Origin: Dudresnaya verticillata
Taxonomy: Eukaryota
Assembly (NCBI GenBank): GCA_977862235.1
Contig: OZ374564.1
Location: forward strand, 62,001 to 126,000
Length of the DNA: 64,000 nucleotides
Reading direction: 5' to 3'
Both the position numbers and the translations under genes were made by a program. The notes under the pieces are model-generated. The model had not been told where the DNA came from and ran no database searches. It saw only the letters and a program-made list of their open reading frames with translations. Numbering within the stretch: the stretch's first letter is position 1; each line of letters starts with the position of its first letter. Of this stretch, positions 11,613 to 55,042 are shown in pieces.

Positions 11613-11615
11613 AAC
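11603..11615 (-). promoter_or_regulatory. Primer binding site complementary to the anticodon arm of initiator tRNA-Met (half-tRNA priming type)
   Basis: Minus strand GTTATGGGCCCAG directly after the 5' LTR, like the GGTTATGGGCCCAG PBS of Drosophila copia. Confidence 0.8.
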
Positions 11616-30167: not shown

Positions 30168-30305
30168 TCTCCCCCCCGTTAAGCGGCGAGTACCCGCACG
30201 AGCCCACACGTGGTACGTTCACCCTGCGCAGGTCGGCGCTGCTCCTTACCATCGCGCCCGCGGGGGTCCGCTTGTCATCGGCGCTCTCGAAACGTACGCG
30301 CCGCT

Positions 30306-31943
30306 ATGCCGCCCCATTTCTCGCCTGCGGAGCTTGACCGCGTATTAATGCACGCGCCGCAGAGTTCTGCAAGCTACCCCACACCAGTCGACTTTGAAGG
30401 CAAAACGCCTTGGAACGACATCATCGAATTCGCGAACGCTCCGTGGATGTTCCACAATAATACCGGAAACAATGCGCTCATCGAGCAATACGTCTCCGAC
30501 CACAGTTTCTTGCCTGGAGGAAATCCCCTACGGGTGTTGCGGACGCCTGACTGGCGCCGGCACGGAGCGATTCGTCCTGACTGGATCCGGTGCCATGGCG
30601 GCGAGGATGTGCGTAGGGCCCGTCTGCGGTACATACGCTTGGTCTTTCAACGGTTTGGCCGTACGCCCTGTCGTGAGGTTGTGCCTAGTGGATATTGGCT
30701 CGACCTTGGCGTGTATCGCACCGTGGGGGAGATCCCCTATGCCGAAGAGTTGGAGGAATTCTCCATTCCGCATTCGTGGGCTGGCATCGAGCCGCGCGTT
30801 CGCCAATCGGCATTATTGCTAGGCGTGCAGTTGCGTGCGGAATTACGCTTCTTGCGCAAGCGCGACAACAACGCGTACTGGGATAAGGTGAGACGGGAGC
30901 GGCGTGCCCGTTCTCGGCTTGGGTTCCTCGTCCCGTATCAGAATGTCGAAGTCGACGCCTTACATCGCAACTACCGCGATCGGTGTTACGTGCGGGTGCC
31001 GGTTCCCCAATGGGGATTGGTGGAATCTTGTGAGGGTTTCCTCGTGGAGCTTTCGCCCGCGGTGAGTTACACCATGTCGACGGTTGTTGGATACCCGCAG
31101 TCGGGACTCTGGACATTGTATTACACGGAATTTGTGGCAAAGACCGCGGTGCAGTGGCTGTGGGAGCTTTACGACACGTACCGCATGTGGTACGTGACGC
31201 CCATAGTCCTGCAATTCTTCGCGCAGTTGGATTTGAGGCGTGTCCTCGGGGGCGTTAACAACGAAGCGGAGTTCCGCGCTAGGCTAGCATTCTATGCCCT
31301 AGTGGATTGGAACCACGACACGGGGCGTGACCCACTTTGTAATAATAAGAGGAGTTCCTCGGCAACCAACTTCTCGCCGGGGAGACGCCATCCGGTTTAC
31401 GGGGATTGGGCGTGGTTCGAACCGTGTCCGCGTACGTTCTTCACTGCGGAACATGCCGCTTGGCTCCGAGGTCACCCCCGCTCGATGCCGCCAGGCCAGC
31501 CGCGTGGATATCTGGAGGACCCCGAGACGGGTGTCATGGACAAGTCTGACTATGAGGAGGAGCCCTCGGACTTAGCTGAAAGTGAGGATTTCCCCGAGGA
31601 TGCTGCGATGACCATCGGGGCCCCAGTGGCGGAAGTGGACCGATCTGCAGGAACGCCTACGCCTTCGGATTCCCCGGGCGCAAATGCGGCAGTGCCCGCG
31701 ATTGAGGTTACTACGACGACACCGGCGTCTGATCCGGGGAGCCAGCTTTGTGCGCGCCGCGTGCGACTGAGCTTCAGTCAGCGCATTGCGGTTATTGGCT
31801 TATTGCGTCGCACGGGGATTCCCGAGAATACGATTCGTGGCACAGATGAGGAACTCCTCGAGACGGCCAAGGATAAGGGGTACGACCCGGAGAGAGAGGA
31901 AGCTGATGGTGGAGCGGGCCCTAGTGGGTCCGCTGAGGTCTAG
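30306..31943 (+). CDS. Antisense accessory ORF of G1, unknown function (545 aa from first ATG)
   Basis: Uninterrupted ORF opposite to gag-pol. Homologous to 51155-53458 over about 380 aa (PVDF.GK.P, FLPGG.PL, IEPRV..A.LLGV.L.A..R.L, VPYQ, CEGF.VEL.P.V.Y, YTE..A..A..WLWE.YDT.RM, GDW). Confidence 0.85.
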   Translation: MPPHFSPAELDRVLMHAPQSSASYPTPVDFEGKTPWNDIIEFANAPWMFHNNTGNNALIEQYVSDHSFLPGGNPLRVLRTPDWRRHGAIRPDWIRCHGGEDVRRARLRYIRLVFQRFGRTPCREVVPSGYWLDLGVYRTVGEIPYAEELEEFSIPHSWAGIEPRVRQSALLLGVQLRAELRFLRKRDNNAYWDKVRRERRARSRLGFLVPYQNVEVDALHRNYRDRCYVRVPVPQWGLVESCEGFLVELSPAVSYTMSTVVGYPQSGLWTLYYTEFVAKTAVQWLWELYDTYRMWYVTPIVLQFFAQLDLRRVLGGVNNEAEFRARLAFYALVDWNHDTGRDPLCNNKRSSSATNFSPGRRHPVYGDWAWFEPCPRTFFTAEHAAWLRGHPRSMPPGQPRGYLEDPETGVMDKSDYEEEPSDLAESEDFPEDAAMTIGAPVAEVDRSAGTPTPSDSPGANAAVPAIEVTTTTPASDPGSQLCARRVRLSFSQRIAVIGLLRRTGIPENTIRGTDEELLETAKDKGYDPEREEADGGAGPSGSAEV

Positions 31944-32199
31944 TCGACAATCGACGGATGGTGTGGGGCAACCGACCCTGCGGGTATAGCCCGTGCGCTG
32001 TACTAGGGAGAGCGTCACCATGATCAGGACTTATTAAAGTTTGCTTGGTTGTTGTTTTGTTTGCCGTAATATGTGGCGCGCCGCGCTTAGAGGAGTTCCC
32101 CTTGGAGATCACTTCAGTAGTAAGGCGTATCGACTCAAATAGGTAGCTGCCGGCGAGCGACGGATCGCGATGGGTCCTAATTGAGGCGTGCGCCGTTCA

Positions 32200-33720
32200 G
32201 TGTGGAAGTCCACATTTCGTTAGCGACTTGGACGTAGGGGTTCCCCAGTCGCTGGAGTTGCGAGCGCTCAAGGCCGTTGCCGGCCATGGGTGTTGTATAC
32301 GGAATCCCGTTTTGGTCATAGCTCGCAATTCTAACTTAGTCGTACACGACTTGGGGGAGGAGGTGAGGTGTACTTGCGGTCGTCCGCTAGGGTGGGCCGC
32401 TGTGTGGGCATACGGCAGGTGATTGGTGCGGAAGGCGTCGGCACCATGATTATCCAATGGGTATTCATGGAGTGGCGCAATGCACGTGACTGGAATGCCC
32501 ACTGCGGCGGGTACAGTAGACTAAACGCGTACTGTGGTCTAGCCACATTAATTGGGTATACAGAAGTCTGATATCGAGTGTGTTTGCCAATGTTGCATGC
32601 TGACCCGGTTGCGTAAGCGCCTACCTGAGTAGTTGGGCGATAGGGCGAGCCAGCCCGTTTACGTCTAGTCGAGTTCGACGTGAGAAAGGACGTAGCCGTC
32701 TAGCTAAGTGGAATGCCACGCGAAGTAGTGGCATGCCCACTGTAGGGGTGCCGAAGGGCTGGGGCGCGAACTCTCGGTCGTGTGGAATACCACTGATGTC
32801 AAACGCTTGCAGCGGTAGATGCCACATGAGCAAACGCAGGCGGAGGTACCCCCTTATCGTTGGGGCAGGGGTACACCAGTCCGCCAGTGGATCGTGGTTA
32901 GTGTTTACGGAATTCCGTTCAGCATAATTGCTTTTATAGCGTCTGCCGTAGACGACGGGGAGGTGGCTGCAGTAGTTGGTTGCGTCCTTTGTAGGGGTGC
33001 TCCCAATGGTTGTGCATAAAAGGCCTTTTAACCCCGGGTTTTCGTGGGACACCACATCTTAGGGAGGTAGGGACATCGCGTCGGGTTCGATGCGTACGCC
33101 CCATGATGTGGAATTCCACTTTTAGTGTGCGGCCTATGTGAGGGCATCCCTTTCACAGGGGGGAACGGGCGCCTAAGGCCATCGACGGCTCACGGTAGGG
33201 GCTTACGCAATCCCATGTTAGGCAAAAAGGCCTTTGGGTTCGCTGACCCATCCGTGGCGGCATCGGCCCTTCGATTACGGAATTCCGTTGTAAACAGAAC
33301 TGCTTTGTTAGGATCCGCTGTAGACGGCTTGGAGGCAGCTGTGTTGCTCGACTGCGCTTTGCTACGGCCGCTGCAGGGGTGTTCCCCATTTGGGTTTGCC
33401 AACAAGGGCGTTGTGGGGCGCCTCATATGAGCGGGGTCGTGAGCGTTGCGTTGTTTTTGACGCGAATGTCCCGCGATGCGGAATTCCGCTTTTTGTGTAC
33501 AACCTGCGCCGAGGCGTTCCCGTTCGTATAGGGGAGCGGCAGCTCAAGGCCGTTAGTGGCTAGGAGCAATCGTTACGGAATCCCGTTTTGTGCATGCTTG
33601 CGTCGTTGACTTAGTCGTATTCGACTTTGGGAGCCACGAGGGCGATCAATTGCGGCAGACCACTAGGGTGAGTGGGTGCGCGTGGGGAAGATCTGATTGG
33701 TGCGGTGATAATTATGTCGT
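32200..33720. repeat. Diverged ~370-bp tandem repeats containing about 10 short palindromes NNGG-N4-CCNN
   Basis: Palindromes at 32202, 32299, 32708, 32782, 32907, 33044, 33108, 33277, 33478 and 33575. Spacings of 201 and 97 bp recur between units. Confidence 0.75.
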
Positions 33721-33864
33721 GGCCGACCAATGAGATACTATATTGTGGCGTACAGTACCCTCATTGTAAGTGCGGCAGCTACTGTGGCATCGACTCCCCA
33801 ATGTGGTATGTCCACTCCATGTGCGACTTGAGCAGATATCTGCACACTTGCTATTTTGGAGGCT

Positions 33865-36800
33865 AGCCCACCATGGCCTTGGTAATGGTGGCGGGGACGC
33901 CGAGGCGTTTCCTTTTACAATAGGAGATGCCTTGGCTCCGGGGGAGGTGTTGTATGGGCTCCCACGTATTTTGGGATGACGGGTACCCATACCATTTCAC
34001 TTCAAACAGAAGTTCTGTATTATCATAACTGTGGTTCACCCCTTTTTAGATGATATACTCGTCACGTGGCGCAGTGTCTTCATTGTGTCGGCGCCTTGAT
34101 GACAGGGTTTCATCTGGTGCCGGTGCTTGAGGTGGGTCCTCTGGCCGAGTATCCAACTGTGACGCGCGTGGCGCGGCGGTAGCTATACGGCGACTCCGTC
34201 TGGGGCTTGGCGTGCCAATGGTCGCGGTTGTTTCTTGATTGCGGTCTGCCGCTTCTGGTCCGAGGTTCTGGCTCACGAGAGGCCGCGTAGGGATTTCCCT
34301 AATGATGCCGTCAAACTTGACGCCCTTTCTTGGTGGGCGTGGAGAATTCTCCTTGTGATGGTCTTGCGTTCTCAACGCGTCTGGCGCCACATCGCGTGTC
34401 GCCCTTTCAGGGGCGTAATCCTTCCCCTCAGCGGGTCGGGTTTCGGCCTGACTAGGGGGCCCTGACGCGGAGCTCTCGGTTACTCGGCGAGTAGGCGAGC
34501 CTTTGCGGAGTATGTCCGGCGTGGTTGCTTCTTGTGGAATATCCACATTATCAAGGGTAGTTCTCGTTGGTTGCGAGAGGGGCTTCCCTTGAGGAGTATG
34601 CCCCGGGGCGGAAGTCGTGCCTGTGTTGTGTGCAGATTGCCGCTGACGAGGCATTTCCTCCCCTACTGTACCGTCGACGGCCTTGGCGCCTTCTGAAGCA
34701 GCGTGCGGTTGATCCGCGATGGGGTGCCCATTTGCGCGGGCACACGGGCGTCGTTCGCTGGCCTGGATTCCGGCTCCGAACTTACGGACGCAGGAGTTGG
34801 CGTGGATGCGGCGGCTTCAACGCGTGTGGTAGGTGGTGAGTGAATTGTGGTAGTCCGCGTGCGGACCCCAGCGGTGCGTCCGGGTACTATGGGCGGCGGT
34901 AAATCCGCCAACCCGCGATCATTGCGTGGCTGTACGGCTGGCGCCACGGCATGAAAGGTAATTGGGGCATTCTCCCCGTGAGAGACAGTAGCTCCGGCAG
35001 AGCACTGTACTCGAGTATGATCGTTATTGAGATCGTTCTTTCGCGGTAAATCCGCATCTGTCGGGCCTGCCGTCCCTTCGGCGTTGGCTTGGTTGGTCGC
35101 GTCCCTTGGTGGGGCGGGTGCCAACACGACTCTGTCGCGGGAAATCCGCTCGTACTCAGGCCCGTCCTTCTCGATGGTGACCGTCTTATCATTTGCGTCA
35201 CTCACGCGATAGGGGCCGTCGGCGATAGGCGCTAGTTTGTGTTTTGGGGTATCCTTCCCATAGTACGCCTTGCGTACGTAGACGTAGGAGTCTACTCCGA
35301 TGACGTCGCGTGAGGGACGTACCCTGTTATCGAAATTGCGTTTGTATCGCGCATGTGTCTGGTCAACGCCTTTTGTGGCCGTTGACAGTAGTCCTGTGAG
35401 CCAGGACTGCCACTTGGCGTGGAATATAGCCGAACTCGGCACTGGTTCCAGTGAGGGGTTTGATTCGACGCTTAGAGCGGGTGGAGGTCTGGAAAGTACC
35501 AGCTGGAAGGGGGCCAGGTTCGTGGTAGAATGAACTTGCGTATTGTACGCGTAGGTGATGGCATCTGAGAATAAATCCCATTCACGCGGATGGTCCGGAA
35601 CGTAGTGCAGTAGCGCGGCGCGCATTGTGCGGTTGAACCGCTCAACCTGCCCATTGCATTGGGGGTGATAGGTTGTAGTAAAGAGGTTTTTGATCCCCAA
35701 CGTTCCACATAACGACTGAAACAACTTTGCGGCAAATTGTCCGCCATTGTCCGACAGTAGGTACAACGGAGGTCCGTAAACGTAGATCCAATGCGTAATG
35801 AACGCTTCGGCAACTTTCGCAGCCGTAATCTTCTTCATCGGAACTGTCAGAACGAGTTTGGAGAAACGGTCTGTGATAACCAAGAGGAATCGATTGCCTC
35901 GTTTCGTGCGAATCAGTTCGCCATAGATGTCAATGGAGACAAACTCCAGGGGTGCTTTTGCTGGAAACAGCTTCATTTGCTTGGTATTACGGCGTAGCAT
36001 AACGCGATTGCGTGCACACGTTGTGCAGTTTCTTACGGTGGCGTAACAGTCCACAGCCATGGAAGGCCAGTAGAATGATCTACGGAGTGAGTAATATATC
36101 TTGCGACCACCGGGATGTCCGGATAGTTTCAGGAAGTGTGCCAGGTGTAGTAAACGTGCGCGAAGAGTAAATGGTATCACAATTTGAGGAAGTGCCTCTC
36201 GTGTGCGAATGAGGACTCCTGTCTCGTCCAGCGCGAACGGTAACCCCTCCCCCCGTTAAGACGAGACGCAGGGAGGTGCAGAAAGCATCTGCTAATTGCG
36301 TTTGAAGAAGCTCTTCCGTCGTGATTGGGCGCAAGAGCTCGGGCTGTGATGAAGGCGGATTCGCCAGGAGGAGGAGATCGGCGACGGCGTCATCTAATTC
36401 GAGGCATTCCTCCGTATGGCAAACGGCGCAGGTTGAAGGAGCGTCCGCCTCAACGTGGAAACACGGAATTTCGTCGTCGATATCGACTTGGGTTTCGCCA
36501 AGCGTTTGAAGACGCGAAAGGGCGTCCGCTTGGGTGTTGATGCGTCCCTTCTTGTAGCGGACGTCAAAGTCGAATTCCGACATACGTAAGCGCCAGCGCA
36601 TAAGGCGCCCGGAGGGATAATTAATCTCCATTAGCCAACGAAGAGATGAGTGATCGGTGTGTATGGTAAACCTTTCCATTTGTAGATAGGGCCGTAAAGT
36701 GGTAACGGCCCACACCAATGCCAAACACTCCTTCTCGGAAACCGAGTAGTTTTTTTCGGCCGCTTGCAGAGAACGGGACCAGTACCCGAGGGGCTTCCTC

Positions 36801-39028
36801 GTACCGTCGGTGTGCGTTTGGAATAAGGCGCAGCCGACCTGGTAGTTCGACGCGTCGGTATCGACAGAATAGGGCAAGCCAGGTTTTGGCAGAGATAGTA
36901 CTGGTGGTTCCGTGACAGCTTTGATCAGCGTCTGGAACGCTGCCTCTTGTTTTTCGTCGAGCGACTCAATGTTGTCCGGGTGATCCTTTTTGAGGAGCCG
37001 GTTCAGTGGTCCTGCCACGTGAGAGTAGTTGGGGACAAACCTCCTATATACGTTACACAATCCGAGGAAAGACCTCAATTCCGTTTGTGTACGTGGGTGT
37101 TTTGCTTTGCGGAGTGCCGCAGTGACCATTGGGTCGACCCGCAGTTCGCCGGGGCGGATGATATGGCCCAGGTAGTTGACGGTGTTTGTGAACAAGTCAC
37201 ATTTCTTCAGTTTGAGGGCAACCCCGGCTTGGTCCAATGCAGTCAGGATCTGCTCGACGTGTTTAAAGTGGGATTCCACGTCCTTGGAGTAGATGATAAC
37301 ATCGTCCAAGTAAACGAGGCATGTCTGCCACTTGAAACCTGAGAGCAGGATATCCAGGGTCCGCTGGAAGGTGGCGGGTGCATTGGTAAGGCCAAATGGC
37401 ATTCTCTTGTAGCGGAAGGTTCCCGCATGGCATGTAAACGTGGTTTTGTCACGATCGCGACCGTTGATGGGGATTTGCCAATAACCCGAGTTGCAATCGA
37501 GCGTAGTGAAGACGTTTGCTTCGCCGAGTGAATCGATGCATTCATCGATGCGAGGTAACGGGTATGTATCCCGAACGGTCGCGGTATTTAAACGTCGGTA
37601 ATCGGCACAGAATCGTAAGGTACCGTCATTTTTAGGCACCAAAACAACTGGAGACGCCCAGGGAGATTGTGCCGGTTCTATGACGCCAGCTCGTAGCATG
37701 CGGTCAACTTCCGCTTGTTCCACTTGGCGTTGCTTCGGACCCGCCCGATAGGGCGGGCACGAGAACGGCCTCGTACCCGGAATCATATCGATGTAGTGTT
37801 CCGTAGTGGTGATTTCACCTAGTGAACCATCCCACATTGTAGAAAACCTACCAAGTAATTGCCGCACGCGCTCGGCGTGATTCTCCGTCAGGTGGGATAA
37901 ATCCACGTCGTCCACCGAAGGTGGGGGTTCATTTTCAGCTCCAAGGGTCTTCGCGTGAGCGTCACCTTTGTTTGTCGTATTCGACAGTCTTCCCAGTCGT
38001 TGGGTTCTTGTTGCAGTATCGTCCGCTAAGTCAGCCAACCCAAGCACGTCCGCCAGTCGGATGGGACTGGGCTCCACGGCGGTGGGGTGCGGGAGGGCGG
38101 TCGCGACGACCTGGTTCTTCGGAAGAACTTGGTCGTGCGAGGTGAAGTTCGCGACTAGAATGCGGAACGGCCGCTTTGGTTCAACATGGGCTATCCCATT
38201 CGTTGCAATGATTCCCTGCCGGTGATACGGCTTGTCGTAGGGCTGAAGGCAAACCAGTCCCGCGCGTTCTGTGGTTACTGACACCCACTTTTGCGCTTGG
38301 GCTGGGATTACGGTTCGTCCCGCTACGCGTATTTTCGTTGAGGTGTGACCTCGTAGTGGCTCATACTCCTGATCACCAGGTAGTGGCGGAGCCGTGGGCG
38401 GTCGCTTCAATGGTCGCCGTGTAATCGGCACGCGAGTCCCATTGTCGAGTTCGACGTCACGGCTCTTCGGATAGATGGCTTCTACGAAACGGTCGCAGAA
38501 GTCACATCCGAGAATGACCGGGGCGGCGAGTCTATCGCAGACAATAAAGTCAAGTTTGACAATGCGGTCGCCCAGTCGAACGACCAAGGCGATGACGCCG
38601 GATGTTTGCAACGGCCTATTGTTGGCGTCGCTGATCGTGGGGATGTCCTCTTCTCGAATGCGGGATTCCGCTTGAGGTGGTAGTTAAGATTTTCTGATAA
38701 AGTTGGGACCGGCATCTGTATCTAGCACAGTACGTTTACGCGATAGGTAGCTTGGGTGTAAACCCGTATCTGCGTATAATTTAAAGTTGCACTTTGCCGC
38801 TATCAGCAATTCGCCTTGTGCATGCGGCGGACGGTACCGGTGCCAGGGCCTGCGCAATCCTGTCATGGGTGGCGAAGCCGAGGTCCGACTAGTCCTTGCA
38901 GGGTTCTGCAGTATGATCTTTGGAGTGATATCCTCCTGCTTGTCGAGTCGTGACCCTTGAGCTTCGTTCGGAGATGGTTCCGGTTGAAGTTCCCCAGTCA
39001 AAGGGGGTGTGACCCCGACTAGTTTTCC
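33865..39028 (-). pseudogene. G1 pol: protease, RT, RNase H, integrase, chromodomain (frameshifted, stop-containing)
   Basis: VLDTDAGPNF, YLDD, VDTDAS, HHCC and DDE integrase motifs. Past an in-frame stop: EYII*K...FEVKWYGYPSSQNTWEP chromodomain. Confidence 0.93.
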
Positions 39029-41434
39029 GAATTGCGGATGTCCGCTCGTCCGTCGCGCCCATTCGCAGGGGACTGTCCAACGGGCGTGAATGCCTGAGGG
39101 TGGCGTTCGCTAGTGTAGGGTACCACATTGGGCGGTCCCTGGGGTCAACCTTGAGGACTTGCCTCATCGTATTGTGCCTGTGCTTTCGCCTTCATGTAAG
39201 ACGTAGCCGGCACACGCTCGCGGTCGACCGCACTGAGCGATTCATAATTCAGGATAATCCTCAGGTAGTCCTTCCATGCTAAGAAGCATTCGGGCGAAAC
39301 ATGCCCAGGCTTGTAGCAAATGTGACAGATGATTGTCTGCTTGGGACCGAGGTTTCTTTGGGGATTTCCCCTATCTTGCCAGCCCGGCCGTGCGCACGTC
39401 ATCCCAGGCGAATGCTCCTTGTATGGGATGCGCGGGGCCGGGACTTGACGAGAGCGCATAAGAAACGCGTTATCTTCGCTTTCGTAGGATCCTACTTGTG
39501 AGTCGGTCGGTGGGTCGGACGACAGCAGTGCCACGTCTGGATACAAGAGGTGTACCTCGGCATCCTGCTCGCCCACCTGCCTACGTGGAACTCCACTTCC
39601 GTCTCGAAATTCAATAGAAGACTCGGCCATCATAGCGGAATTTCCGCGTCCTGGACGACGACCTCCTGAAGTTGCGGTACGGCCAGCGAGTTGGTCTTGT
39701 CCAGTGCGTGGTGCGCGACTTCTTCCACGGTGAGTTTCACCTTCATCTTAAGCGTAATGCACTAGTCGTTCAAACGACAATTCATGACAAGGCGTTTCCT
39801 CTCGATACCGGGCGACTAGCGAGCGGATGATCGGATCGAGGCCGTCGATGAAGTACTTCATCTTCTCCCATTCCTTGTGGGCATTTCCACACATCGGTTA
39901 CACGCTTTCGAGACTCGCATCCCGAAGCGTGTTTCCGATTCGCCAGTGTTCTGCCGAAGGGCACGGAGCTCGAGGATTACCTCACGTAGCGCGCTCTGTG
40001 ACGCATAGGTCCGCAGAAGATACTGCACAGCTTCCGGTCATGAGGATACTCCTCCATTAGAACGGGGCGGAGCGGCCTTGACCGAACGAAATTGAGTAGC
40101 GGCATCTCCGCGTAAGAAGTAGGCCAAGGCGATGAACGCCTGCGCCTCCGACATGTCGAGAGTGTCGGCCTCGTCGACTAGCCTGCAGAGAAACTCCAAA
40201 ATCAACACGGGGTCTTCCCCATTAAAGGAACAATCCTTCATGGTTAACTCCTGTCTTTTGATCTGGTCCTTGATCTTGCCGGTCTGTCGGCTTGTACGGG
40301 ATTGTTCCGTATTCTGTAGGCAGTAGTGCCTGTAGGACAGCAATTGGTCATACAAGGGGTTCGTTGGTTTCAGCTCCTTGAGGTGCTTATAACGCGGCCC
40401 CTTGCGTCGTATACCATCATTGCGACGGGGATTTCCCCAAACTTCTCCATCGGAGCGGTCTGAGTCCGAATTGTCGGAAGCCGACCGGGAGGAACTTCCG
40501 TAGCCGTGGCGATGGTGACGGCGACTGCGGGTATTCCGCGTTGAGTCACGATGCCGGTTTTGACGCCGTTCTTCTCGGCGCTCTTGACGATAATCGTCCT
40601 CATGCTGATGGTCAGCACACCTGTAAGGGCAACTGTCCTTGGGATAAGTGTCCCCGTGTCGATGGCGATTGTCGAATTCTACTTGTCTTCTGTTTGCGCC
40701 TCGGCCATCGGGAGGCAGGGGCGGTTCCCGCTCATTGAGGCATATGCCCTCTAGTCGTTCCAAACGGTCGGCAATCCGCGTTATGCGATCATCGAGCGGG
40801 AGTTCCGCGGGTAAGCTTGGGGGCTAGGAAGGGGCCCCCTTGCGGGAGTAGCCCCGCAGGTTTCGAGGAGGCGGTTAAGGTCTCCTCGAAGTGTGCGGAC
40901 CTCGACGGCGAGGTCCGGGTGGTTCTGTGGAGGATTCTCCAGGACGAGGTCAATTCGAGTACCAACCTCGTCGATAAGTTGGTTTACCAAAGCGAGGCTG
41001 TCCTTTATCTCACGCGACAGCCGGGCGGCAAAAGCCTGGTCTTCCATGAGGCACACCTCCTGAATCGCACTTCGGGGAATAGTAGTCCCGTGTATGAAGG
41101 CAACGCGGGGTGCTTCCTCTTGGACTGTGGGTGGCTCCACCGGCGGCGGAAGTGATGCCGAAATCGGCGGTGGTGGATTGGGCAGCGGCGGCGGAGGTGC
41201 CGGCTGCCCGCCTTGGTCTTGGCCAGTCGGGAGAGTCCGGGCTGGGCCAGGAGGTACGATCTCCACCGAGGGGGGAATGCGAGGAACCCCCTCATTGGGT
41301 ATTGCGGAAAAAGCGGCTTGGACCGCAGGACTTGCCTGCGCACGTGCACGCGTCACTATATTGGCAGCGGTCTGCGTTGGTACAGACCTTGCCGATGACG
41401 GCTGTCGACGGGTGGGCATGGCAGATAACTGCAA
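39019..41434 (-). pseudogene. G1 gag (fragmented)
   Basis: FNGEDPVLILEFL...MSEAQAF capsid-like block; CHICYKPGHVSPEC knuckle; ends ...SEN* at 39019. Confidence 0.88.
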
Positions 41435-41524
41435 TGTAAGGGTTTGAACCAGAAGAACAGGATTTCCGTAACGTAGGCAACGTAGCCAATCGGAATTTCC
41501 GAACTTCTAGGTCGGGAGACCAAA

Positions 41525-42302
41525 TGTGGTGCAATCCACTCGGTAGAATCGAGGATGCACCTCAGGCGGTTCGGGGGCCTGGCGGTAGCAGGTGAGGTAG
41601 TAGCGGTAGAGCAGGAGAGTAGCCCCGTAGTGCGACTGTAAAACACTACAAGGCCGAGAAAGGGGGTTACCCTAGAAAGAAAGAGAAAACAAAGGAAACA
41701 TAAGAGAAAAACAGGATTCTGTACGATGAAGAAGGGTAGCGTACGTACTGAAGTCCAACCTAGCGAGGGAGTCGATAGGGTAGGAGGGTATGTCTCGCTG
41801 GGCCCAAACTTAGCCGTTTACTGTATGAGGGCGCACCTCGGGGCCCTAATATACTATGTAGGAGGTGGGTGCGCCTTGGTGGCGGATTAAGGTAGTGGAA
41901 GGGGGGCGCGCCACTTGGTATTACGTGGCGCGCGCAAATCTATAATTATCTACTAAAATATCAACTGTCAGCCTGTTGGTAGTGTGGCTTGACAGTTTGC
42001 GCCAAGGGGGCGCACGTGTGCACGTGTACGCGTTGTCGTCTTGCGGGGCCATCCTTGCTGGCAGAGGGCGTCGGGCACTGTCAGGCCGGGTGCCTTACAG
42101 GGGCACTTCCCCAGTGTCATTGCTGGCGTATGCGCGTGGTGCCAGAGCTTATTACAGGAATTGGCTCTGAGATCAAACATCCGCGCAGCGGTTGATCCGC
42201 AGGAGCCGGCCGCTGTGCGTCCGTCGTCCGCAGTCGCGTGAGCTGCGGGTGGCTGCATTATGAAGAATTCTTCAGCAGGGCGTGATGGCGATTTGCGCCA
42301 CA
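41525..42302 (-). repeat. G1 5' LTR (778 bp)
   Basis: Followed on the minus strand by PBS TGGTCTCCCGACCTAGA (41506-41522). Confidence 0.92.
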
Positions 42303-42330
42303 AACGATACGACGCGAACGGATCCGAGAG

Positions 42331-44250
42331 GTGTGCGTCTTGGAGGACGATGCGATGCTCGCTAGATTCGCCGGGTTGCTGGTCAGTGTCGGAGGAATCG
42401 CAAGTCGTCTAGAGACGTTGGAAGAGGATCGGAACGGCGCCCTACAAGGGCTTCGATCCGACCTCGACCGTCTATTGACGAACCAAAACGCCCAAGGCGA
42501 GGGTACACAACCACCGCCGGCAGTAACGGTTCATTCGCATTCTGATCTTAGCTCACGCGAACGCTTTCAGCGACTTGCGAACCGCTTAGAGCGTCTCAAA
42601 ACCGCCAAGTGGCGCAATGGTCCACCGTCGGGTGACGAGATCTCAGGCGAAGATCGTCACAGACGTAAGGATCGGAAGAAACGCCGTCGCAAGCTGCGTC
42701 AGAGACGGAAGAAGAACCGTCATCGACGTGGGGACTCATCCTCGTACTCTTCGGACTCGTCAAGTGACGGAGAGTCATCAAACTCTTCGTCTGAGGACGA
42801 CGACTTCCCAACGCTCGTCATTGCCGCAAGACCTCGCGAAAAGCGGTTCAAGGGGTTGAAGGAGCTACGCCCCTCCAACCCCCTTTTCGATCAGTTATTA
42901 TCGTACAGGACGTACCGTCTCAAAGACGTAGGGCAAAAACGCTCAGGGCGCGATACGGGTAAGGTCAAAGACCACATCAAGCGCTTGGAGCTGACCATGA
43001 AGGACGCCGCCTTCAACGGCAGCGACCCCGTCATGGTCCTCGAGTTCCTGACGCGTTACGCGGATGAAGCCGATACGCTGGAGATGAGCGAAGCCCAAGC
43101 GTTCGTCGCGCTGCCGTACTTCTTGCGAGGTACGGCAGCCACGCAATTCCGCTCCGTCAAGTCGACGTCTTCTCGCCATCGCGGCGGGGTGTCTTCGTAT
43201 CCGGAGGCGGTACAGTACCTCCTCCGTACGTATGTTACGCCAGCGGCGATCAGGGACGCTGTCCTCGCCCTACGGTCGACTGCCCAAAAGCAAGGCGAGG
43301 ACGAGACTACCGATGGGATGCGGCTAGCAGGTGCGTGTATTCGTTGCGGTAACGTATATCCCGATTGGGAAAAGATGACGCTGTACATCGACGGGTTAGA
43401 CCCGTCGATCAGGTCCCTGGTCGCTCGCTTCCGAGAAGAAACGCCAAGGGCGGAGTTGTCATTTGAGCGGCTGGTCCACTTCGCACAAGACAAAGGGGAT
43501 GCCAACCGCGCACGACACGGCAGGGCCGGTTCCGCGTCAGCACGACGTGACCTACTGACACCGGCTCAAGCCGTACGCACACCGCGATCCGCCATCGGCG
43601 ATGCCCGAGGGGTACTGCGTCCACCGACGAGAGGCACCAAGCCTGGAGCGCACGCTATGATAGCGGAGTCCTCCGTCGAGTTCCGAGACGTTAGTCGCCC
43701 TGTCGATGACATGGAAACACACGCCGAAGGCGATCTGTACTTGGCAGACGAGCAAGCGTCGGTGCCAAACTCGGCTCTACCGACGGACAGCTACGTCGAT
43801 AGCGAAGACGAAAGGGATATGGACCCTGCTCTCGCCTTTGGGCGCTCGGTCGTACCAGCGCTACGCGTCCCCTATTCCGAGTATCCTCCTCACGTTCACC
43901 GAGCAAGGCCCGGATGGCAGGACAGAGGCCCGCCCCGTCAAGACGCGCGTCGGCAGCTGGTATGCCACCAATGCTACGCCCGCGGACACATCGCGCCGGA
44001 CTGGTTCCTCCGCATGAGCGACTTCATGAAGGTTATTACCAACTGTGAAGGACTAACCGAAGCCGAGAAGGCTGGTGTCCCCGCTGATGCGTATGTACGT
44101 TGCAAGGAACGCGTGACCCGCGACGCTGCTCGCCGTGCTGCACGACCACAATCGCCACGAGGCGGACCCATGCCACACGCGGCAGAACGTCATCCGACGA
44201 TGATCAATCGCTATGTAGCGCCACAACCACCGCCGCAGGCGAAAAACTAA
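42331..44250 (+). CDS. G2 gag (5' end probably truncated)
   Basis: Strong similarity to G1 gag. Degenerate knuckle CHQCYARGHIAPDW. Ends G AAA AAC TAA. Confidence 0.88.
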   Translation: MCVLEDDAMLARFAGLLVSVGGIASRLETLEEDRNGALQGLRSDLDRLLTNQNAQGEGTQPPPAVTVHSHSDLSSRERFQRLANRLERLKTAKWRNGPPSGDEISGEDRHRRKDRKKRRRKLRQRRKKNRHRRGDSSSYSSDSSSDGESSNSSSEDDDFPTLVIAARPREKRFKGLKELRPSNPLFDQLLSYRTYRLKDVGQKRSGRDTGKVKDHIKRLELTMKDAAFNGSDPVMVLEFLTRYADEADTLEMSEAQAFVALPYFLRGTAATQFRSVKSTSSRHRGGVSSYPEAVQYLLRTYVTPAAIRDAVLALRSTAQKQGEDETTDGMRLAGACIRCGNVYPDWEKMTLYIDGLDPSIRSLVARFREETPRAELSFERLVHFAQDKGDANRARHGRAGSASARRDLLTPAQAVRTPRSAIGDARGVLRPPTRGTKPGAHAMIAESSVEFRDVSRPVDDMETHAEGDLYLADEQASVPNSALPTDSYVDSEDERDMDPALAFGRSVVPALRVPYSEYPPHVHRARPGWQDRGPPRQDARRQLVCHQCYARGHIAPDWFLRMSDFMKVITNCEGLTEAEKAGVPADAYVRCKERVTRDAARRAARPQSPRGGPMPHAAERHPTMINRYVAPQPPPQAKN

Positions 44251-47200
44251 CTCGGGCACCAACTCCTGACGCTGGGTTGTCGCACCGCGAAGAGAGGCCT
44301 AGGCCTCGGGTGCTGACACGGAAGGAGGGCCCGGAGTTAGTCACCGATGACGCCAACGGGCGGATAGAGTCGTCACAGACGTCATTAAAACGCCCGTGGC
44401 GAAGGTACCAGCCCCCCAGGCGCGAGGGCAGTTGTTCGTAATGGCCAAGAGGAACTATAAGATGTACGCCGATTTGGGCGCAACCGTTAGTACCTTGGCA
44501 CGTAAACGCACTGTCTTCGGCACGGGGGCTGGTCCGAATTTCATTCGCATTGACGAAATTCTGCTGGAAGCGCGATCGCGCATCGTGGCAAAGAGCCTCC
44601 CCGTCATAGCCGACGCCAACAATAAGGCGATCCAGACAAGAGGCACCATCGACCTGGTCGTTCGTCTAGGACGGAGAGTCGTCAAGTTGGAACTGATCGT
44701 TTGCGAACGACTCGCTGCGCCGGTTATACTCTGCTGCGACTTTTGCGACCGCTTCGTCGAAGCAATATATCCGCGAAGTCGTGAGGTTGAATTGGATGAC
44801 GGGACTCGTGTCCCTATAACGCACCGCCCGCTGCGCCGACCCCCGTCGTATCCTCCGTTACCAACGGAACAGGAATACGGCAAGGCCGAAGGGAGGACAT
44901 CGCCCAAGATCCGAGTCGCCGAGCGCGCGGTCATCCCGCCTAAGGCGCAGCAATGGGTATCGGTGACCACCGAGCGCGCTGGCATCATCACAATTCAACC
45001 GTTCGGAACGCTGTATGACAAACAAGGTCTGGCCGTTACGAACGGGATTGCTCAAGTGGAGCCGCTCAAAGCGTTTCGCATTCTGGTTGCCAACTGTGGT
45101 GCAAACGTCTGAGACGATAGACCGCCGAGCAGTTCGCGGCTCGGTGGGTAGCTGCGCCCTCGGCGATGCGTGGTCCCGCCGTGGGTGACTTGTTGGTAGA
45201 GCAAAGGAACACGCCTTGGGCGGACTGTAGGCGCCCGAGGCGGAAGGTGTGAAGGAAGGGAAAAGGATACAGAAAGGGAACACGTCAAGGACGATGGTAG
45301 ACGTGGAAGCACGGGAGGTAGACGCTTAGCCGTAGGCAGCGGTACGGTACGCGCGTGCGGAACAGGGAAGTCTGGACCAAGGCCGGCTTGCCCGGGCGTT
45401 TACTGTTACGTCTGGGACGGCTTACCTAAGTATAGTACGGCGATGCGGCAGCGGCGGTGCGTGTGCGTAGCGCGGGAACTTGGGACACGTGTCATCCCGA
45501 GGTGCGTCTGACAGATCACCCATCGTATGCACCCGCGCGCCTGACAGATTGCTGCACAACCCCCTGTGTGGGTGCTTACACGCACACGTGGACGCGTGTG
45601 CCTTACAGCCGTGCGCGCGCGCATACTGTAGAGCGTGCGCCTTGGATCTAATCCGATACTTGTCCGACCCCGATGCCATCCGGATCGGGCCAGCAATGCG
45701 AATACCCGCAGCCTTACAGGCGCGGATCTTACAGCTTAGGCGATCCGGATAGCCAATCTGGATACCGGATCCGGATCCCATCTGGATCCGTATTACAGTG
45801 CCCCGGGGCGCCACGTCGGCCCATCACCGTACAGTGCCCGCATGGCGCGCGGCGCGCAGTGTGCGCGCGCGCCCCAGTGAGCCGTCCATGACGTGTTCGC
45901 GCGCCAACGGCGGTGGTGAGCGCCGGTGGCGGTTTCTCCGTCGGGCGACGTATTTGGTCTGCCCGCTTTCAGCGAGAAAGGGCTCACCTCCCCTTGCACC
46001 ACACCAACTTCTCTCCCCGTCCGCAGGCGCTGGCCAAGGGCCAAGTCGTCGCGACGGCGTTACCACATCCGACAGCAGTGTTCCCCAGTCACGTAAGTCT
46101 AGCCGATGTTTTGGGCCTCACAGAGGAACAGACCGAGGACGAGGAGGCAAACCAAGATTTCCGTTTTCGAACAAACGATAACACTGCGGCACAGCCGGAT
46201 ACTTTCACGAAGTCTATCGAGGCAACCACTGCCAAACCTCCGTCAGTAGACGATTTAGACCTGGGACATCTCCCACCGAGCATCAAGGCCGGCTTAAGGA
46301 GATGTTGCGCAAGTATTCGTCTATGTGGGACGGTTCGTTGGGAGAAATCTCAACCACGGAGCACTACATCGACTTGCTTCCCGGCTCTAGACCGATATCG
46401 TCCCCGCCCTACCGAGCGGGGCCGAAGCAAAAACAACTCGCTCAAGCGGAAGTGGACCGCATGCTGGGGCAAGGGGTTATCGAACCCGCACAATCGCCAT
46501 GGGCGTCACCAGTGGTCTTCGCCTCCAAGAAGGACGGGACCCTCCGCTTTTGCGTGGACTACCGTCGTTTAAACGCAGTAACCGTACGGGACACGTACCC
46601 GCTGCCGCGTATCGACGAATGCATCGACAGTCTAGGGGAAGCAAACGTCTTCACCACCCTAGACTGTAACAGTGGGTACTGGCGGGTGCCGATCAATCCG
46701 CGAGACTACGATAAGACTGCGTTCACGTGCCACGCCGGACTGTTACGCTATAAGCGTATGCCATTCGGTCTCACGAACGCACCCGCTACGTTTCAACGAA
46801 CGTTGGACATACTGCTCGCTGGTTACAAGTGGCGTTCGTGCCTCGTCTACCTCGATGACGTAATAATCTTCTCCAGCGACATCGACAGCCACTTCCGTCA
46901 TGTTGACGAGATCCTTTCGACATTGCACCGCGCCGGGGTGATTCTGAAGTTGACCAAGTTTGACTTCTTCACCCCAACCGTCAACTACTTAGGACACGTC
47001 ATACGTCCAGGACGGTTAGAAGTTGACCGAACTGTCACTGCCGCGCTACGCGAAGTCAAGCATCCACGGGATCAGAAGGAGCTACGGAGTTTCCTCGGTC
47101 TTTGCAACGTCTACAGACGGTTCGTCTCGCGATACTCGCATGTCGCTGCCCCCGTCAACAAGTTGCTGAGGAAGGAACAGGACTTCCGGTTACAACCGTT

Positions 47201-49880
47201 TGATGAGACATAAGCCAAAGCGTTCAGTACACTCGTCGAGGCCGTGACTCATCCGCCTATACTGGCGCTACCACAGCAGGGTCTCCCCTATTCCGTCCAT
47301 TGTGACGCAAGCGAGTATCAGGTCGGCTGCGCTCTCTTTCAAACGCGGCCCGACGGGGAACGCAAGCCGCTCGGCTTCTGGTCCCGCTCGCTCACCGCTC
47401 CAGAGCGTAACTACTCGGTCTCCGAAAAAGAGTGCCTCGCAGTAGTATGGTCCGTCATGACGCTGCGACCTTACCTCCAGATGGAGTCGTTCAAAGTCCA
47501 TTCGGACCATTCGTCGTTGAGGTGGCTGATGGAAATCAGCGATCCCTCTGGACGGTTAATGCGGTGGCGCCTTCGCCTTTCCGAGTTCGACTTTGTCGTG
47601 AAGTACAAAAGGGGGTACCTGAATACTCAGGCAGATGCCCTTTCGCGTCTACAGACGAAGGGAGAAACCGTCGAGCCCATTGACGATGATATACCGTGCT
47701 ATCACGGAAGCTACGTCGAAGACGGGCATCAAACGTCACAAGACGATCTGTCAGACGCCGAAGGAGAGGTCGACTTCTCCGAACGAGAGTTCGAGGAGTT
47801 CGACCAAGTGTTGATCAACAACACGCCACCGGCGGAGGAGGTACTCCTTCGTCAAGTGACGCATGAAGAGTTGGTACACGCCCGACGCGATGACAAATAC
47901 TGTAACGATGTCAGGAAACGTCTGGATGACGGGATCATCGTACCGTTCGCAACGGATGAACAGGGCCTGTTGGTCCGAACAGTGTAAGTCCGTCCGCAAG
48001 TGGTCGTACCCGCCGCGTTACGCGCTCGCTTACTCCACCTCCGGCACCACGCCAAGTTGGCAGGGCACCCAGGGGGCGTAAGTTGTATCATACGCTTCGA
48101 CGCGAATACTATTGGCCATCGATGCCAGTGGACTGCTATGCGACCGTCCGCAACTGCGTAACCTGCGCTAAGAATCGCGTATTGCTGCGAAGGAACACCA
48201 AGCAATTGAAGTTATTCCCGGCAACCGAGCCTCTCGAATTCGTATCGATCGACATCCTGGGCGAACTCAGACGCACGAAGCGAGGAAACAAGTTCCTACT
48301 CGTCATTGTGGACCGCTTCTCGAAGCTGGTCCGGACGGTCCCACTGCGTAGTATTACGGCATTGGAAATCGCTAAGGCGTTTGTGCGACATTGGGTCTTC
48401 GTGTACGGTCCTCCCAAGAACCTTTTGTCCGACAACAGACCACAGTTTGTGGCTAAGCTGTTTCAGGATATCTGCCGTCTCTTGGGAGTGGAGAATCTCT
48501 TCACCACGACGTACCATCCGCAATGAAATGGCCAGGTAGAACGATTCAATCGAACTATCCTGGCCTCGCTGCGTCACTACGTTGCGGATCATCCGAGAGA
48601 CTGGGACCTGTTCACGGATGCCTTGACATTCGCATACAACACACAGTTGCATTCGTCTACGCATCTCGCTCCGTTTGAATTGATGCTGTCTAAGCCACCA
48701 CGGCCATTGTCGCGCGAAGCGGAACCGTCGCTCGAAAGCGTACCCACCGCGGGGCAATAATACAACAAGTGGCGAACCTGGTTGGCCGCACTGATGGGAA
48801 CCGCTAAAGCGTCGTTAGAGAAGATTCAAGCACGTTAAAAACGAAACTTCGATACCCGATTAAGGAAATCGAAGGAAGCAATCGCCATAGGCGACTTCTT
48901 ATTCGTACGTAAGGAATACTTCGCCCGAGGCGGGAGCACGGATCACGCAGAGCTTAAGCATAAGCTGGCGCCAGTGGCGGACGGACCATACCGGGTAACT
49001 CACGTTGATAACGAGACCGTAACCGTCGACAAGGGACGTGACGAGCTGGAACATTTGTCCCGAGACCGCGTGGTCTGGGCGCTGACCCCACCGGGTCAGG
49101 TGACCCCTCCAATTGTCGTACCACCAGGCCCGCCTGAGGAGCAGGAAGCAGTCGCCCCCACGTCACAAGACGAAGGGACGACTATCCCAGGCACGCCACC
49201 AGCGGACCCGGAGGAGGACGCAGACACTTCGCATACTGCGGCAGATCCGCAAGAGCGTACGATCGCCGCGTCACGCAGTCGTGGGTTGGCAGAGCTTTCG
49301 CCCTTCGCCGCCGATCCCGACGACCGCGCTTCGCAATCCGTCTCCAACGACGACAATACCCCAGGGGTTCGCACCCGTTTGGAACACGTCGCTACGGCAC
49401 CGCCGAATGAGAACAATGACTCCGCTGAAAGCGCGTCCGATAACGAAGAAGTTAACCGTGCAAGCACGAATCAAGGCGCTGCAAGCGATGAACTCGTCTC
49501 AAGACGCAACAACCCACTGACCGCTGATCGAGCGTCCGAGGCACAAGGCCAACGCCTTCAGCGATCAACTCGTCGAGTACACTTCGCCGAACCGGAACAG
49601 ATGCCCATAACGCAACGAGACGAACCGTCAAAGGCGCTGGAAAGTCCCACGTCCAAGCCGAACGCTGTGAGCGGGAAAGAATACGTGATTGAACGCATCG
49701 AGTCGCACGCGTACGCGGATGATGGAGAGACCCTCTAACGCGTCAAGTGGTTTGGATACCCCGCTTCAGCGAACACCTGGGAGCCCGTGTCTAGTTTGCC
49801 GCGATCACACGCCGTGCGGTACCACCGTCGGAAGCAAAGGCGCCTGCCTCCAAATATTGACGACGCCCAGCGCGGATAAC
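44247..49880 (+). pseudogene. G2 pol: PR (catalytic D to G), RT, RH, IN, chromodomain; several stops and frameshifts plus a solo-LTR insertion
   Basis: VFGTGAGPNF, YLDD, HCDAS, FVSID...LSDN; EYVIERIESH...*RVKWFGYPASANTWEP. Confidence 0.93.
45095..46003 (-). mobile_element. Solo LTR (family A, 909 bp) inserted antisense in G2 pol
   Basis: TGTGGTGCA...TGCACCACA termini; TSD CCAAC (45090-45094 and 46004-46008). Excision restores RILVAN|FSPRPQ. Reverse complement of 53968-54869. Confidence 0.95.
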
Positions 49881-51154: not shown

Positions 51155-53458
51155 TCAAGACTCTTTCGTCGCAGACGAAGCGGGTTGTATATCCTCAGCG
51201 CCTTCGGCGGACTCACGCAACGCCTCTTCGTAGAGGTCGTCCTCCGTCGTCGACGGTACACTCACGGCAGGAGCCGGGGCAGACCGCAAAGGCCTCGCCA
51301 CCGCAACTGCCGGAGTAGTCGCAACAGGCGCCGCAGGCGAAAGGGGCGACTTATCAATCGCCTTTGGCGTCGTCGCGACGATATCCGCCAAAGTAGATGA
51401 AGCAATAACACCCGTCACCGGCGCAGAGCTCAAGCTATCGTCCGCCTTAGGCGCGGGCACAGCCCCATCCACTTTAAGCGTAATCAACGACTCTTCGACC
51501 GCCTTTGGCGTCAGTTCAGAAACCGCCTTCATTGGCGTCGCCTCTTCACTCGCCTTCGGCGTTGTTAATCCGACACCCGTCAATGACGCAGGAGCACCTA
51601 GCCCCTTTGGAACCGTCAACGACGCTATAGCGGCATTCGCTTCGCTCGCCGCAGGCGGTACAGTCATACTCACGTCTTTAGACGCCGGACCATTCGCCAT
51701 AGGCGACGAAGGCTTCTCCGCCACACCGTCCTCCGACGCAGAACCTACGACACTAGTCGACTTCGGCGCGGGCCCACCCTGAGGTGGGACCGCAGCCGAC
51801 AAAGATTGGCTCATCCACTCAGTGGGTGAGCCGCTCAGACCGCTAGTAGCGACGCCTGCAGCCTGCAATAACGCAAGCACGGTGCGGCGCTGCTCCTCGG
51901 TCCAAGCCGGTACCGAAGCTGGACCTCCAGAACCGTCTGCGACGTTCGATACTTCGCCTTGAGGCGTTACGGTCGGTGGAGCCGACTCCAATATTGGCGT
52001 CGCCATAACGGCATCGCCATCATCGTCAGCGACAGGAGCCGCAAGGTCCAGAGGCACAACAGCTGGCAGGCCAGCTGGCACTCCACCGCCACCGACAGCA
52101 CCTCCGGGCAAAGCCGAAGATGCGGGCGCAGGCTCGGCAGTCGACTCAACCGCCATAGGCGTAGTGATATCCGTCCCGGACGAGTTCCCCGGTCCGCCAT
52201 CGGCGTTAAACGCATCCTCCTCGGCCATTAAGGCACTCAAATGCGGAGGAAAATCACCGACAAAGTCGCAGCTCTTACGCAAACCACGCGGGTGATTACC
52301 CGGGGTGAAGCGGTCCGTTTTGCGATGGCGCTCCGCAACGTTCTTCGTCGTACGACGCTTTGTCCATGGATTATAATGGATCCAATCGCCACAGGCGGAG
52401 TGAGTACGACTCATCGCGAATCGCGGACGGTTCGCCTTACGGCGGTTGTTCGCATACGGCACTATTGCCGGGTCGTTCCAATCGATCTCATCCGCCACAG
52501 CGCGCAGGTTACAGAACTCCTCGGCGTTCCGGGACCCGCCAAATATTTCGACCAAGTCGAGGCTGCCAAGCTGAGCCACCACACGCGGGGGTAAGTGGTA
52601 CATACGGAAGGTGTCATACACCTCCCATAACCACGCATAGGCCACATTGGCGGCCCACTCCGTGTAAAACACGATCCAATACCTGGAATATGGGTCGGTC
52701 ATCAGCTCGGAACCAAGATACGTGACACACGGAGGAAGCTCTACGGAGAAACCCTCGCATATCTCAAACTCGCGCCATACAGGCGGCACCTTCACGAAAC
52801 AGAAGGGTAACTTACTACGCTCAATGCGATCGACCTGCATGTCTTGGTAAGGTACGAATGCGCCCTTTCGGCGACGCGTCTCGCAATCCCATCGGATACA
52901 ACGCTCCCAAAAGAACGTACCCGTACGATGCAAGTAACGGAAATCCGCTTTCAAGCGTACGCCTAATAGGTAAGCCTCTCCCAACACACGGGGCTCAATC
53001 GACACGCTCACATGTTTGAGCGATAACGTCCCGAGACGAGCACCATACTCGGCTTCGCCGGCTGTGCGGTATTGTCCCGCATCATAATTGAATAAGGGCG
53101 GCGTTAACGTCGACCCCGGATAACGCGTGAAGCGACGATACACGTCTGAGACGAACTGCGCGTGGACGTCCGCACGCGACTGTCCCGATCGCACCCAAAC
53201 CCATTCCGCAGGAACGGCGCAGCGTAACTTCCATTCCAACGTCCAGACGACGCCGAGGGGCAGGCCCCCCGGCAAGAAACCGCTAGTAGCGTAATGGGCG
53301 ACCAATTCTTCCTCGCGCAAAGCCTCTTGGTCAAACCGGGGGGCCCGCGCGAAGAAATGCGCGTGATCGCGAGGGTTCTTTCCGACGAAGTCGACCGGCG
53401 AAGCGTACACCGGCGCGGCCGAGGGCGCCGCCACCTGCATGCCATTGAACATCGGCAT
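51155..53458 (-). CDS. Antisense accessory ORF of G2, unknown function (767 aa; conserved N-terminal domain, Ala/Pro/Ser/Thr-rich tail)
   Basis: Uninterrupted, ATG-initiated, opposite to gag-pol; homologous to 30306-31943. Confidence 0.87.
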   Translation of the reverse strand: MPMFNGMQVAAPSAAPVYASPVDFVGKNPRDHAHFFARAPRFDQEALREEELVAHYATSGFLPGGLPLGVVWTLEWKLRCAVPAEWVWVRSGQSRADVHAQFVSDVYRRFTRYPGSTLTPPLFNYDAGQYRTAGEAEYGARLGTLSLKHVSVSIEPRVLGEAYLLGVRLKADFRYLHRTGTFFWERCIRWDCETRRRKGAFVPYQDMQVDRIERSKLPFCFVKVPPVWREFEICEGFSVELPPCVTYLGSELMTDPYSRYWIVFYTEWAANVAYAWLWEVYDTFRMYHLPPRVVAQLGSLDLVEIFGGSRNAEEFCNLRAVADEIDWNDPAIVPYANNRRKANRPRFAMSRTHSACGDWIHYNPWTKRRTTKNVAERHRKTDRFTPGNHPRGLRKSCDFVGDFPPHLSALMAEEDAFNADGGPGNSSGTDITTPMAVESTAEPAPASSALPGGAVGGGGVPAGLPAVVPLDLAAPVADDDGDAVMATPILESAPPTVTPQGEVSNVADGSGGPASVPAWTEEQRRTVLALLQAAGVATSGLSGSPTEWMSQSLSAAVPPQGGPAPKSTSVVGSASEDGVAEKPSSPMANGPASKDVSMTVPPAASEANAAIASLTVPKGLGAPASLTGVGLTTPKASEEATPMKAVSELTPKAVEESLITLKVDGAVPAPKADDSLSSAPVTGVIASSTLADIVATTPKAIDKSPLSPAAPVATTPAVAVARPLRSAPAPAVSVPSTTEDDLYEEALRESAEGAEDIQPASSATKES

Positions 53459-53967
53459 GACGTCAACGACGAGAATATGTTAGCGCCAACGGCGATGCCT
53501 GTTCAAACTTCAAAGGCGACTCGTGTTCTGCGCCACTGGCGAAAGCTTCGAGAAGCGTGCGTCGAAGACGATTACTGTTGTAACGCCTCAGGCGAGGAAA
53601 AGAAACCCACGTCAACGACGTTCAGCTGCTGCGCCACTGGCGATGCCAAAGGCAAACGACGTCGATGACGATTAAGTTGCGACGCCCCAGGCGAGGGATA
53701 TACGATAGACGTCAACGACGGAGAACGTTATGCGCCACGGGCGGTGATGTCGGGGCCGCGTCAACGCAGTCGCACAGACACAAGCACGCAACAAGAGCGA
53801 AGTTCTTTCGGCACAGCCGAGGTCGCAACGCGCCCGCGGGCGCACCAACACAATACGCGAAGGCGCGGGGACTCGTTCGCAAGGCGCGGAAGTTGGCAGG
53901 AACGCAACGGGAGGGCGCACGGCAGCAGGTTGAGGGTCGGGCGTGTTCGCGTTTTGGAGGGGGGTCG

Positions 53968-54909: not shown

Positions 54910-55042
54910 TGTGGTATAGACGCTATCCGTGAAACGACTCCGTGGCGTACGTGAAAATAATCGAGAAATACGAATTTCGAAATGACTCCTGCACGCACGT
55001 GATACGAAATCACTGACATCTCCGGACGAATCCCGAGCCGAC
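54910..55042 (-). mobile_element. Inverted fragment of LTR family D
   Basis: TGTGGTATAGACGCT...AAATAATCGAGAAATACGAATTTCGAA is the reverse complement of about 27920-27999, joined to sequence like 27187-27235. Confidence 0.75.

Follow-up and report, generated by a model that had tools for sequence, protein, structure and literature searches.

Why do two decayed retrotransposons each carry a long, unbroken gene that runs against their own gag-pol? The question is raised by the window analysed here, a stretch of 64,000 nucleotides from contig OZ374564.1 of Dudresnaya verticillata, which is a eukaryotic region dense in transposable elements (TEs) and contains two Ty3/Gypsy elements, G1 and G2, with one such open reading frame (ORF) apiece. 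Judged from their sequences, the two ORFs represent an accessory gene that is conserved in a single Gypsy lineage bearing a chromodomain. The G1 ORF (30306-31943, + strand) encodes 545 amino acids (aa), and the G2 ORF (51155-53458, - strand) encodes 767 aa including a low-complexity tail. Both are uninterrupted and antisense to gag-pol, with the chromodomain on one side and the polypurine tract (PPT) on the other, and they start 138 nt (G1) and 509 nt (G2) from the 3' long terminal repeat (LTR), close to the 140 and 510 bp given by the initial annotation. The longest stop-free runs reached by chance in 500 dinucleotide shuffles per region were 264 codons (G1 region) and 335 codons (G2 region). 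The two proteins are 34% identical over 461 columns (BLASTP, E 7e-77), and the colinear alignment over about 380 aa reported initially is recovered as a core of 381 codons with 37% aa identity. The conserved globular domain of G1, about 390 aa long, occupies 30348-31521 (+) and its G2 counterpart 52270-53428 (-); a distal helix-loop-helix motif lies at 31779-31875 (+) and 51802-51892 (-), respectively. The architecture termed aORF-3R, in which related elements have in common a long ORF lying antisense between pol and the 3' LTR, is already known; in the sequence features tested the protein differs from TRP28, VANC and env.

The protein family and its predicted fold

Word-indexed searches retrieved four ENA proteins at 34-40% identity. 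A five-sequence profile searched against 1.84 billion representatives of 50%-identity clusters matched 1,407 of them at E<=1e-3, of which 615 pass 1e-10 and 145 pass 1e-30, and the best 150 of these 1,407 matches were taken for the family analyses. The alignment comprises 146 sequences: to G1 and G2 it adds 144 of 152 collected family members, P0107 (1,202 aa) and seven short fragments having been set aside, and its blocks are occupied by 74-130 rows. None of the 49 longer members scanned reached the Pfam cut-off, and four of them gave unrelated weak matches (E 0.005-0.04), which agrees with the earlier description of an unrecognised, element-encoded domain that is not env. Neither PF04195 (TRP28), PF10536 (PMD) and PF03078 (Athila ORF1) nor DUF1985 and DUF287, the domains of VANC, were matched in Pfam scans of G1 and G2, five members, the 49 longer members and three ORFs from the related loci described below. 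The family appears to be undescribed in the literature searched, in which Boty brtn and PAG1 were compared by description only. In a quick tree of 57 near-full domains G1, G2 and P0001 are joined with a Shimodaira-Hasegawa-like approximate likelihood-ratio (SH-aLRT) support of 99.

AlphaFold2 modelling, which had been proposed as a check, gave a confident fold on the 146-row alignment, with a mean predicted local distance difference test score (pLDDT) of 94.5 and a predicted template-modelling score (pTM) of 0.93. The five models range from 93.9 to 94.5 and 360 of 396 residues are at pLDDT >=90. The model is a single compact domain, mainly helical with long ordered loops. Overall, the protein is predicted to consist of a compact fold of about 390 aa and a small distal helix-loop-helix on disordered linkers, the latter motif being replaced by a coiled coil in a remote subfamily. 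The short distal helix claimed for G1 and G2 turns out to be a helix-loop-helix of about 35 residues. The motif was detected in 34 of 67 family tails, or in 24 of 57 when the seed tails are set aside, and in none of the 67 tails when reversed; its helices have no significant match among PDB sequences.

The position between pol and the 3' LTR is that of env, and a 19-residue hydropathy window above 1.6 occurs in 24 of 154 sequences, which would suit an env-like or cell-to-cell movement protein. An env-like gene is expected in sense orientation with a transmembrane (TM) segment or signal peptide, whereas both ORFs are antisense and their hydropathy maxima over 19 residues are 1.05 (G1) and 1.39 (G2), so that a TM segment is not apparent in either, as had been noted from the start. 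With a soluble globular fold predicted and relatives whose tails resemble nuclear localisation signals (NLSs), this explanation is very improbable.

The conserved columns are mainly Pro, Leu, Arg, Glu, Gly, Trp and Tyr. Among charged columns conserved at >=75% Arg is commonest (8 Arg, 6 Glu, 3 Asp), and neither Cys nor His is conserved in the family alignment. If the protein were instead an enzyme that works on DNA, RNA or chromatin through an acidic active site not described before, comparable to the methylase or oxygenase cargo of red-algal DNA transposons, this would account for the conservation of D133, E142, E198, E240, E275 and D367 at 80-92% and for a domain predicted to be large and globular. 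There is also a precedent in the red-algal Plavaka elements, which bear enzymatic accessory genes (bioRxiv 10.1101/2025.02.11.637652). However, not one of the columns is invariant in 146 rows, His and Cys are missing from the conserved set and several of the acidic positions are lost in the alignments of two remote relatives (L001 and L002), which makes an enzyme distinctly unlikely.

Inheritance with an element lineage

A scan of GTDB contigs with the G1 reverse transcriptase (RT) yielded seven loci at 53-65% identity, all in one metagenome-assembled genome (MAG), G001, titled uncultured Algimonas sp. The contigs are likely eukaryotic and mis-binned into a bacterial MAG, probably as host contamination, and the loci represent one dataset rather than seven hosts. 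As Algimonas lives on red algae, this finding, the GC level and the intronless kinase-WD40 gene of the window make a red alga the likely host. At least eight contigs of this MAG (L001-L007 and L009) carry eukaryotic LTR retrotransposons. Three of the seven loci stop inside pol and four reach further. In L001 and L002 gag, pol and the chromodomain are unbroken and are accompanied by complete antisense ORFs of 994 and 837 aa, respectively, which match the domain by hidden Markov model (independent E-value, iE, 1.9e-16 and 2e-8) and by hhalign (97.5% and 95.7%). L003 has a partial antisense ORF homologous to that of L001 (E 1e-83), L005 just a basic tail of 76 codons at the contig end, and L009 a homologous ORF without element context. 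A profile built from these ORFs in turn matches 52 of 154 family sequences (E<=1e-3) as well as both window ORFs (iE 4e-7 and 0.005). In these remote proteins the domain is followed by a coiled coil, to judge from weak Pfam matches to coiled-coil families, and all four ORFs of this subfamily that were examined have basic, NLS-like ends with 11-14 K/R in the last 40 aa.

The 17-nt primer-binding site (PBS) of G1 is identical in L002, L005 and L007 and in two other remnants in the window (sites at window 21038, 28793 and 41513, L002:925, L005:1006 and L007:57), although these elements share only about 54% RT identity. The implied acceptor end is presumably of the tRNA-Tyr type. This non-Met primer is unlike the tRNA-iMet-type PBS of Beta chromoviruses (PMC3605345). 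In an RT tree covering the RTs of the window and of the related loci G1 and G2 group with a support of 100. Because intact related elements with the same PBS hold a remote homologue at the same antisense position, the ORF is a regular accessory gene of the lineage, and its inheritance together with the elements is supported by these sequence comparisons.

Selection and decay

In the 381-codon core G1 and G2 have codon-position identities of 0.51/0.59/0.30, with a non-synonymous divergence (dN) of 0.72 and a saturated synonymous divergence (dS); for comparison, two segments of gag are 53% and 39% identical and RT-RNase H (RH) is 71% identical. These figures show that the accessory gene evolved under purifying selection during the active life of the families, at a rate like that of gag, and they support selection of this kind over the long term.

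The initial annotation had counted roughly 6-9 stops or frameshifts in each gag-pol and contrasted them with the intact ORFs. These counts hold, at eight point lesions each: over 7.5 kb the gag-pol of G1 (33905-41419, -) contains 4 stops and 4 frameshifts, and that of G2 contains 6 stops and 2 frameshifts over about 6.7 kb and has also been interrupted by a solo LTR. The antisense ORFs (aORFs) have no lesion in 3.9 kb against 16 point lesions in about 14 kb of gag-pol; conditional on the counts, the chance that none falls in the aORF is 0.19 for G1 and 0.11 for G2, jointly 0.02. On this contrast one might suppose that the two copies were kept intact after the death of gag-pol by host selection (domestication) or by selection as helpers in trans, which would be compatible with the other readings of the gene. 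The idea that the aORF was spared while gag-pol decayed is nevertheless weak, because a post hoc test with n = 2 lies behind it and equally long unbroken stretches occur within gag-pol itself (1.94 kb of G2 gag, 2.4 kb of G1 protease (PR)-RT). For the domain only the chance is about 0.06, using an earlier G2 lesion count, and frameshifts close to the ends of the low-complexity tails are hard to detect. The retention of these copies by selection has accordingly little probability. Of the two earlier claims, the ORFs are indeed unbroken beside lesioned gag-pol genes, yet the contrast is less special than it seemed; and selection in the past stands, while selection at present is weakly supported.

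Relation to known systems

Antisense 3' ORFs without an assigned function are described in Grande, RIRE2, Retand, PvRetro13 and the fungal Boty, and gene23, the one in Grande, is transcribed in antisense and has a nuclear product (PMC7264820). The majority of these ORFs are heterogeneous and fold poorly (PMC6317226; PMC11728184), and the extra ORFs of plant Gypsy elements fall into 314 groups (PMC6317226). The nearest class by layout is the aORF-3R type of the Retand/Tat elements (Grande gene23, RIRE2, Retand ORF4/TRP28), which are Gypsy elements whose copies conserve a long ORF in antisense to pol, placed between it and the 3' LTR; they also have tandem or degenerate repeats in the pol-LTR region (PMC7264820; PMC11963269). 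Retand itself is a non-chromovirus, 97% of whose clusters encode TRP28 (PMC11963269). G1 and G2 differ in having a chromodomain, in the lack of TRP28, PMD or Athila ORF1 matches in the members scanned and, likely, in the kingdom of the host. Boty, which we take to be a chromovirus, would hence offer the closest architecture. This element of Botrytis cinerea, also named BcGypsy1, is a non-plant Gypsy with an antisense ORF, brtn, between pol and the 3' LTR (PMC7264820; bioRxiv 10.1101/2021.04.13.439636). Unlike brtn, as far as its description goes, the present gene belongs to a family of more than 1,400 clusters found across elements with about 54% RT identity.

Chromovirus accessory ORFs that are conserved in a subgroup and predicted to be nuclear are also known from Tekay, but these are 5' and 92.5% disordered (PMC11728184), whereas those of G1 and G2 are 3', antisense and predicted to contain a well-folded domain of about 390 aa. 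The Plavaka elements share the trait of accessory cargo in red-algal transposons (PAG1-3, with PAG1 of unassigned function); they are, however, DNA transposons, the enzyme domains of PAG2 and PAG3 are unmatched here and PAG1 was compared by description (bioRxiv 10.1101/2025.02.11.637652). The VANC proteins of VANDAL DNA transposons, which carry DUF1985/DUF287 and bind short motifs in the tandem repeats of their own element (PMC5735166), resemble the present family in having a conserved core and highly variable regions, and in G1 a short motif occurs densely within degenerate repeats of non-coding DNA. Unlike VANC, the gene belongs to an LTR element and lacks DUF1985/DUF287, and the motif arrays are not general.

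Proposed function

The reading that we favour, still tentatively, is that of a nuclear trans-acting factor that is expressed from an antisense promoter in the 3' LTR, binds its own elements and counters their silencing or activates them. This view of promoter, localisation, binding and function draws on the architecture of the elements and on precedents. An antisense promoter in the 3' LTR (in G1, 29390-30167, -, 778 bp) would give the gene an antisense mRNA of its own, and the protein made from it would be imported into the nucleus, bind element DNA or chromatin and there either counter silencing or activate transcription. With a transcript of its own, the gene could be expressed even when the 5' LTR is silenced, and its protein could act on sister copies in trans. 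The sole indirect sign of a translated antisense transcript is the leader of the G2 ORF (53459-53967, -), which encloses the PPT and has no ATG in 509 nt against 3.8 expected (P 0.0075, with degenerate repeats of about 101 bp lowering the independence of the sites); the opposite strand has 6 ATG. The G1 leader of 138 nt is uninformative on this point. The spacer between pol and the aORF of G1 (31944-33900) contains degenerate repeats and, within them, 9 GGAATNCC sites against 0.18 expected for a motif that was picked after being seen.

Several observations weigh against this factor. The net charge of the domain ranges from -15 to +11 with a median of about +1 (57 members) and is thus not strongly basic, and the last 40 aa contain 4 K/R in G1 and 2 in G2, which therefore have no basic C-terminal tail. 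The distal motif matches the Pfam HeH/LEM family (PF12949) in one of ten rows, weakly (E 0.12). No comparable motif array is present in five other spacers (G2, L001, L003, L005 and L002, the last having one 77-bp repeat). Element context is established for five or six family members and not for the best 150 profile matches. In G3, a third chromovirus of the window (54986-59956, +) with a long intact RT-integrase (INT) frame and a Pfam chromodomain, no homologue of the antisense gene was detected; this related element is a natural negative control and suggests that the gene may be dispensable.

The conserved Arg and aromatic residues suit RNA equally with DNA, and the protein could instead be a post-transcriptional or particle-level cofactor, binding either the RNA of the element, for its export or to suppress RNA silencing, or its pre-integration complex, for nuclear import or the targeting of insertion, in the manner of retroviral accessory proteins. 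The basic tails of the remote subfamily, co-inheritance with RT and the gag-like evolutionary rate would fit such a role, which earlier authors have put forward for antisense ORFs at the 3' end (PMC7264820) and for the aORFs of Tekay (PMC11728184). On the other hand, a protein co-assembled with Gag or Pol would presumably need no separate antisense gene and the elements already have a chromodomain for targeting, so that a cofactor is possible but rather doubtful. Returning to the nuclear factor, a bolder form of it would make the protein, with its undescribed fold and more than 1,400 clusters, the standard antisense gene of an algal chromovirus lineage and a sequence-specific, anti-silencing counterpart of VANC, binding short palindromic motifs like those of the G1 spacer and kept in dead copies through its action in trans; taken as a whole, this is unlikely.

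What the antisense 3' ORFs of LTR retrotransposons do has been named as an open question (PMC7264820; PMC11963269). The present family lends itself to direct tests of structure, localisation and binding because it is deep and alignable, with a high-confidence model and intact carriers. Should the protein counter silencing, it would be a candidate chromatin tool of programmable specificity and would bear on the expansion of LTR elements in the genomes of seaweeds, a group in which the silencing of TEs has been little studied (Bostrychia preprint). Whatever its function, the domain is a candidate new entry for Pfam and for TE annotation.

Organisation of the elements and neighbouring genes

G1 is a minus-strand Gypsy element whose LTRs are 92.6% identical. 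Its PPT (30168-30177, -) adjoins the 3' LTR, its gag-pol encodes gag, PR, RT, RH, INT and a group-I-type chromodomain, and its 17-nt PBS (41506-41522, -) lies next to the 5' LTR (41525-42302, -). In G2 the gag gene (42304-44250, +) is truncated at its 5' end and free of lesions; pol and the chromodomain (44351-49880, +) are interrupted at 45095-46003 (-) by a reversed solo LTR of the G2 family with a 5-bp target duplication, and the PPT (53956-53964, +) and 3' LTR (53968-54869, +, 902 bp) follow. The initial annotation is corrected on two points. The 5' LTR of G2 is absent from the window, as is its PBS, and the 5' LTR of G1 adjoins truncated G2 gag at 42303; and no target-site duplication was found around G1. 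Its view that the LTRs belong to different families holds, since only short matches align. The order PR-RT-RH-INT between LTRs with PBS and PPT, of which G2 lacks the 5' LTR and PBS, is that of Ty3/Gypsy chromoviruses. The chromodomains of G1 and G2, with one stop in each, align to the Pfam Chromo match of G3, and their place at the integrase C-terminus and aromatic cage of Y, W and Y are those of group I (PMC3605345).

The 3' end of G3 contains two 99%-identical solo LTRs in opposite orientations and 246 bp apart (61170-62015 and 62262-63107), each with its own 5-bp target duplication. Together with the solo LTR at 45095 this pair suggests that these LTR families insert into related chromoviruses.

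The remainder of the window includes an intronless gene (1094-4825, +) whose 1,243-aa product joins a protein kinase to WD40 repeats, about 8 in number, near-identical and of 129 bp each. It also has an N-terminal helical region and 78-bp repeats, and looks like a rapidly evolving receptor-type gene. A Copia-type element (6707-12005, -) with LTRs of about 392 bp that are 98% identical and long open gag and pol ORFs is probably young. An open frame of 737 codons (14833-17046, +; 621 aa from the ATG) has no Pfam match and, by eye, a cysteine-rich C-terminal end and motifs that we take to be piggyBac-like. A LINE-like element (long interspersed nuclear element; 21740-26258, -) with ORF1, endonuclease and RT was recognised by eye in several pieces.

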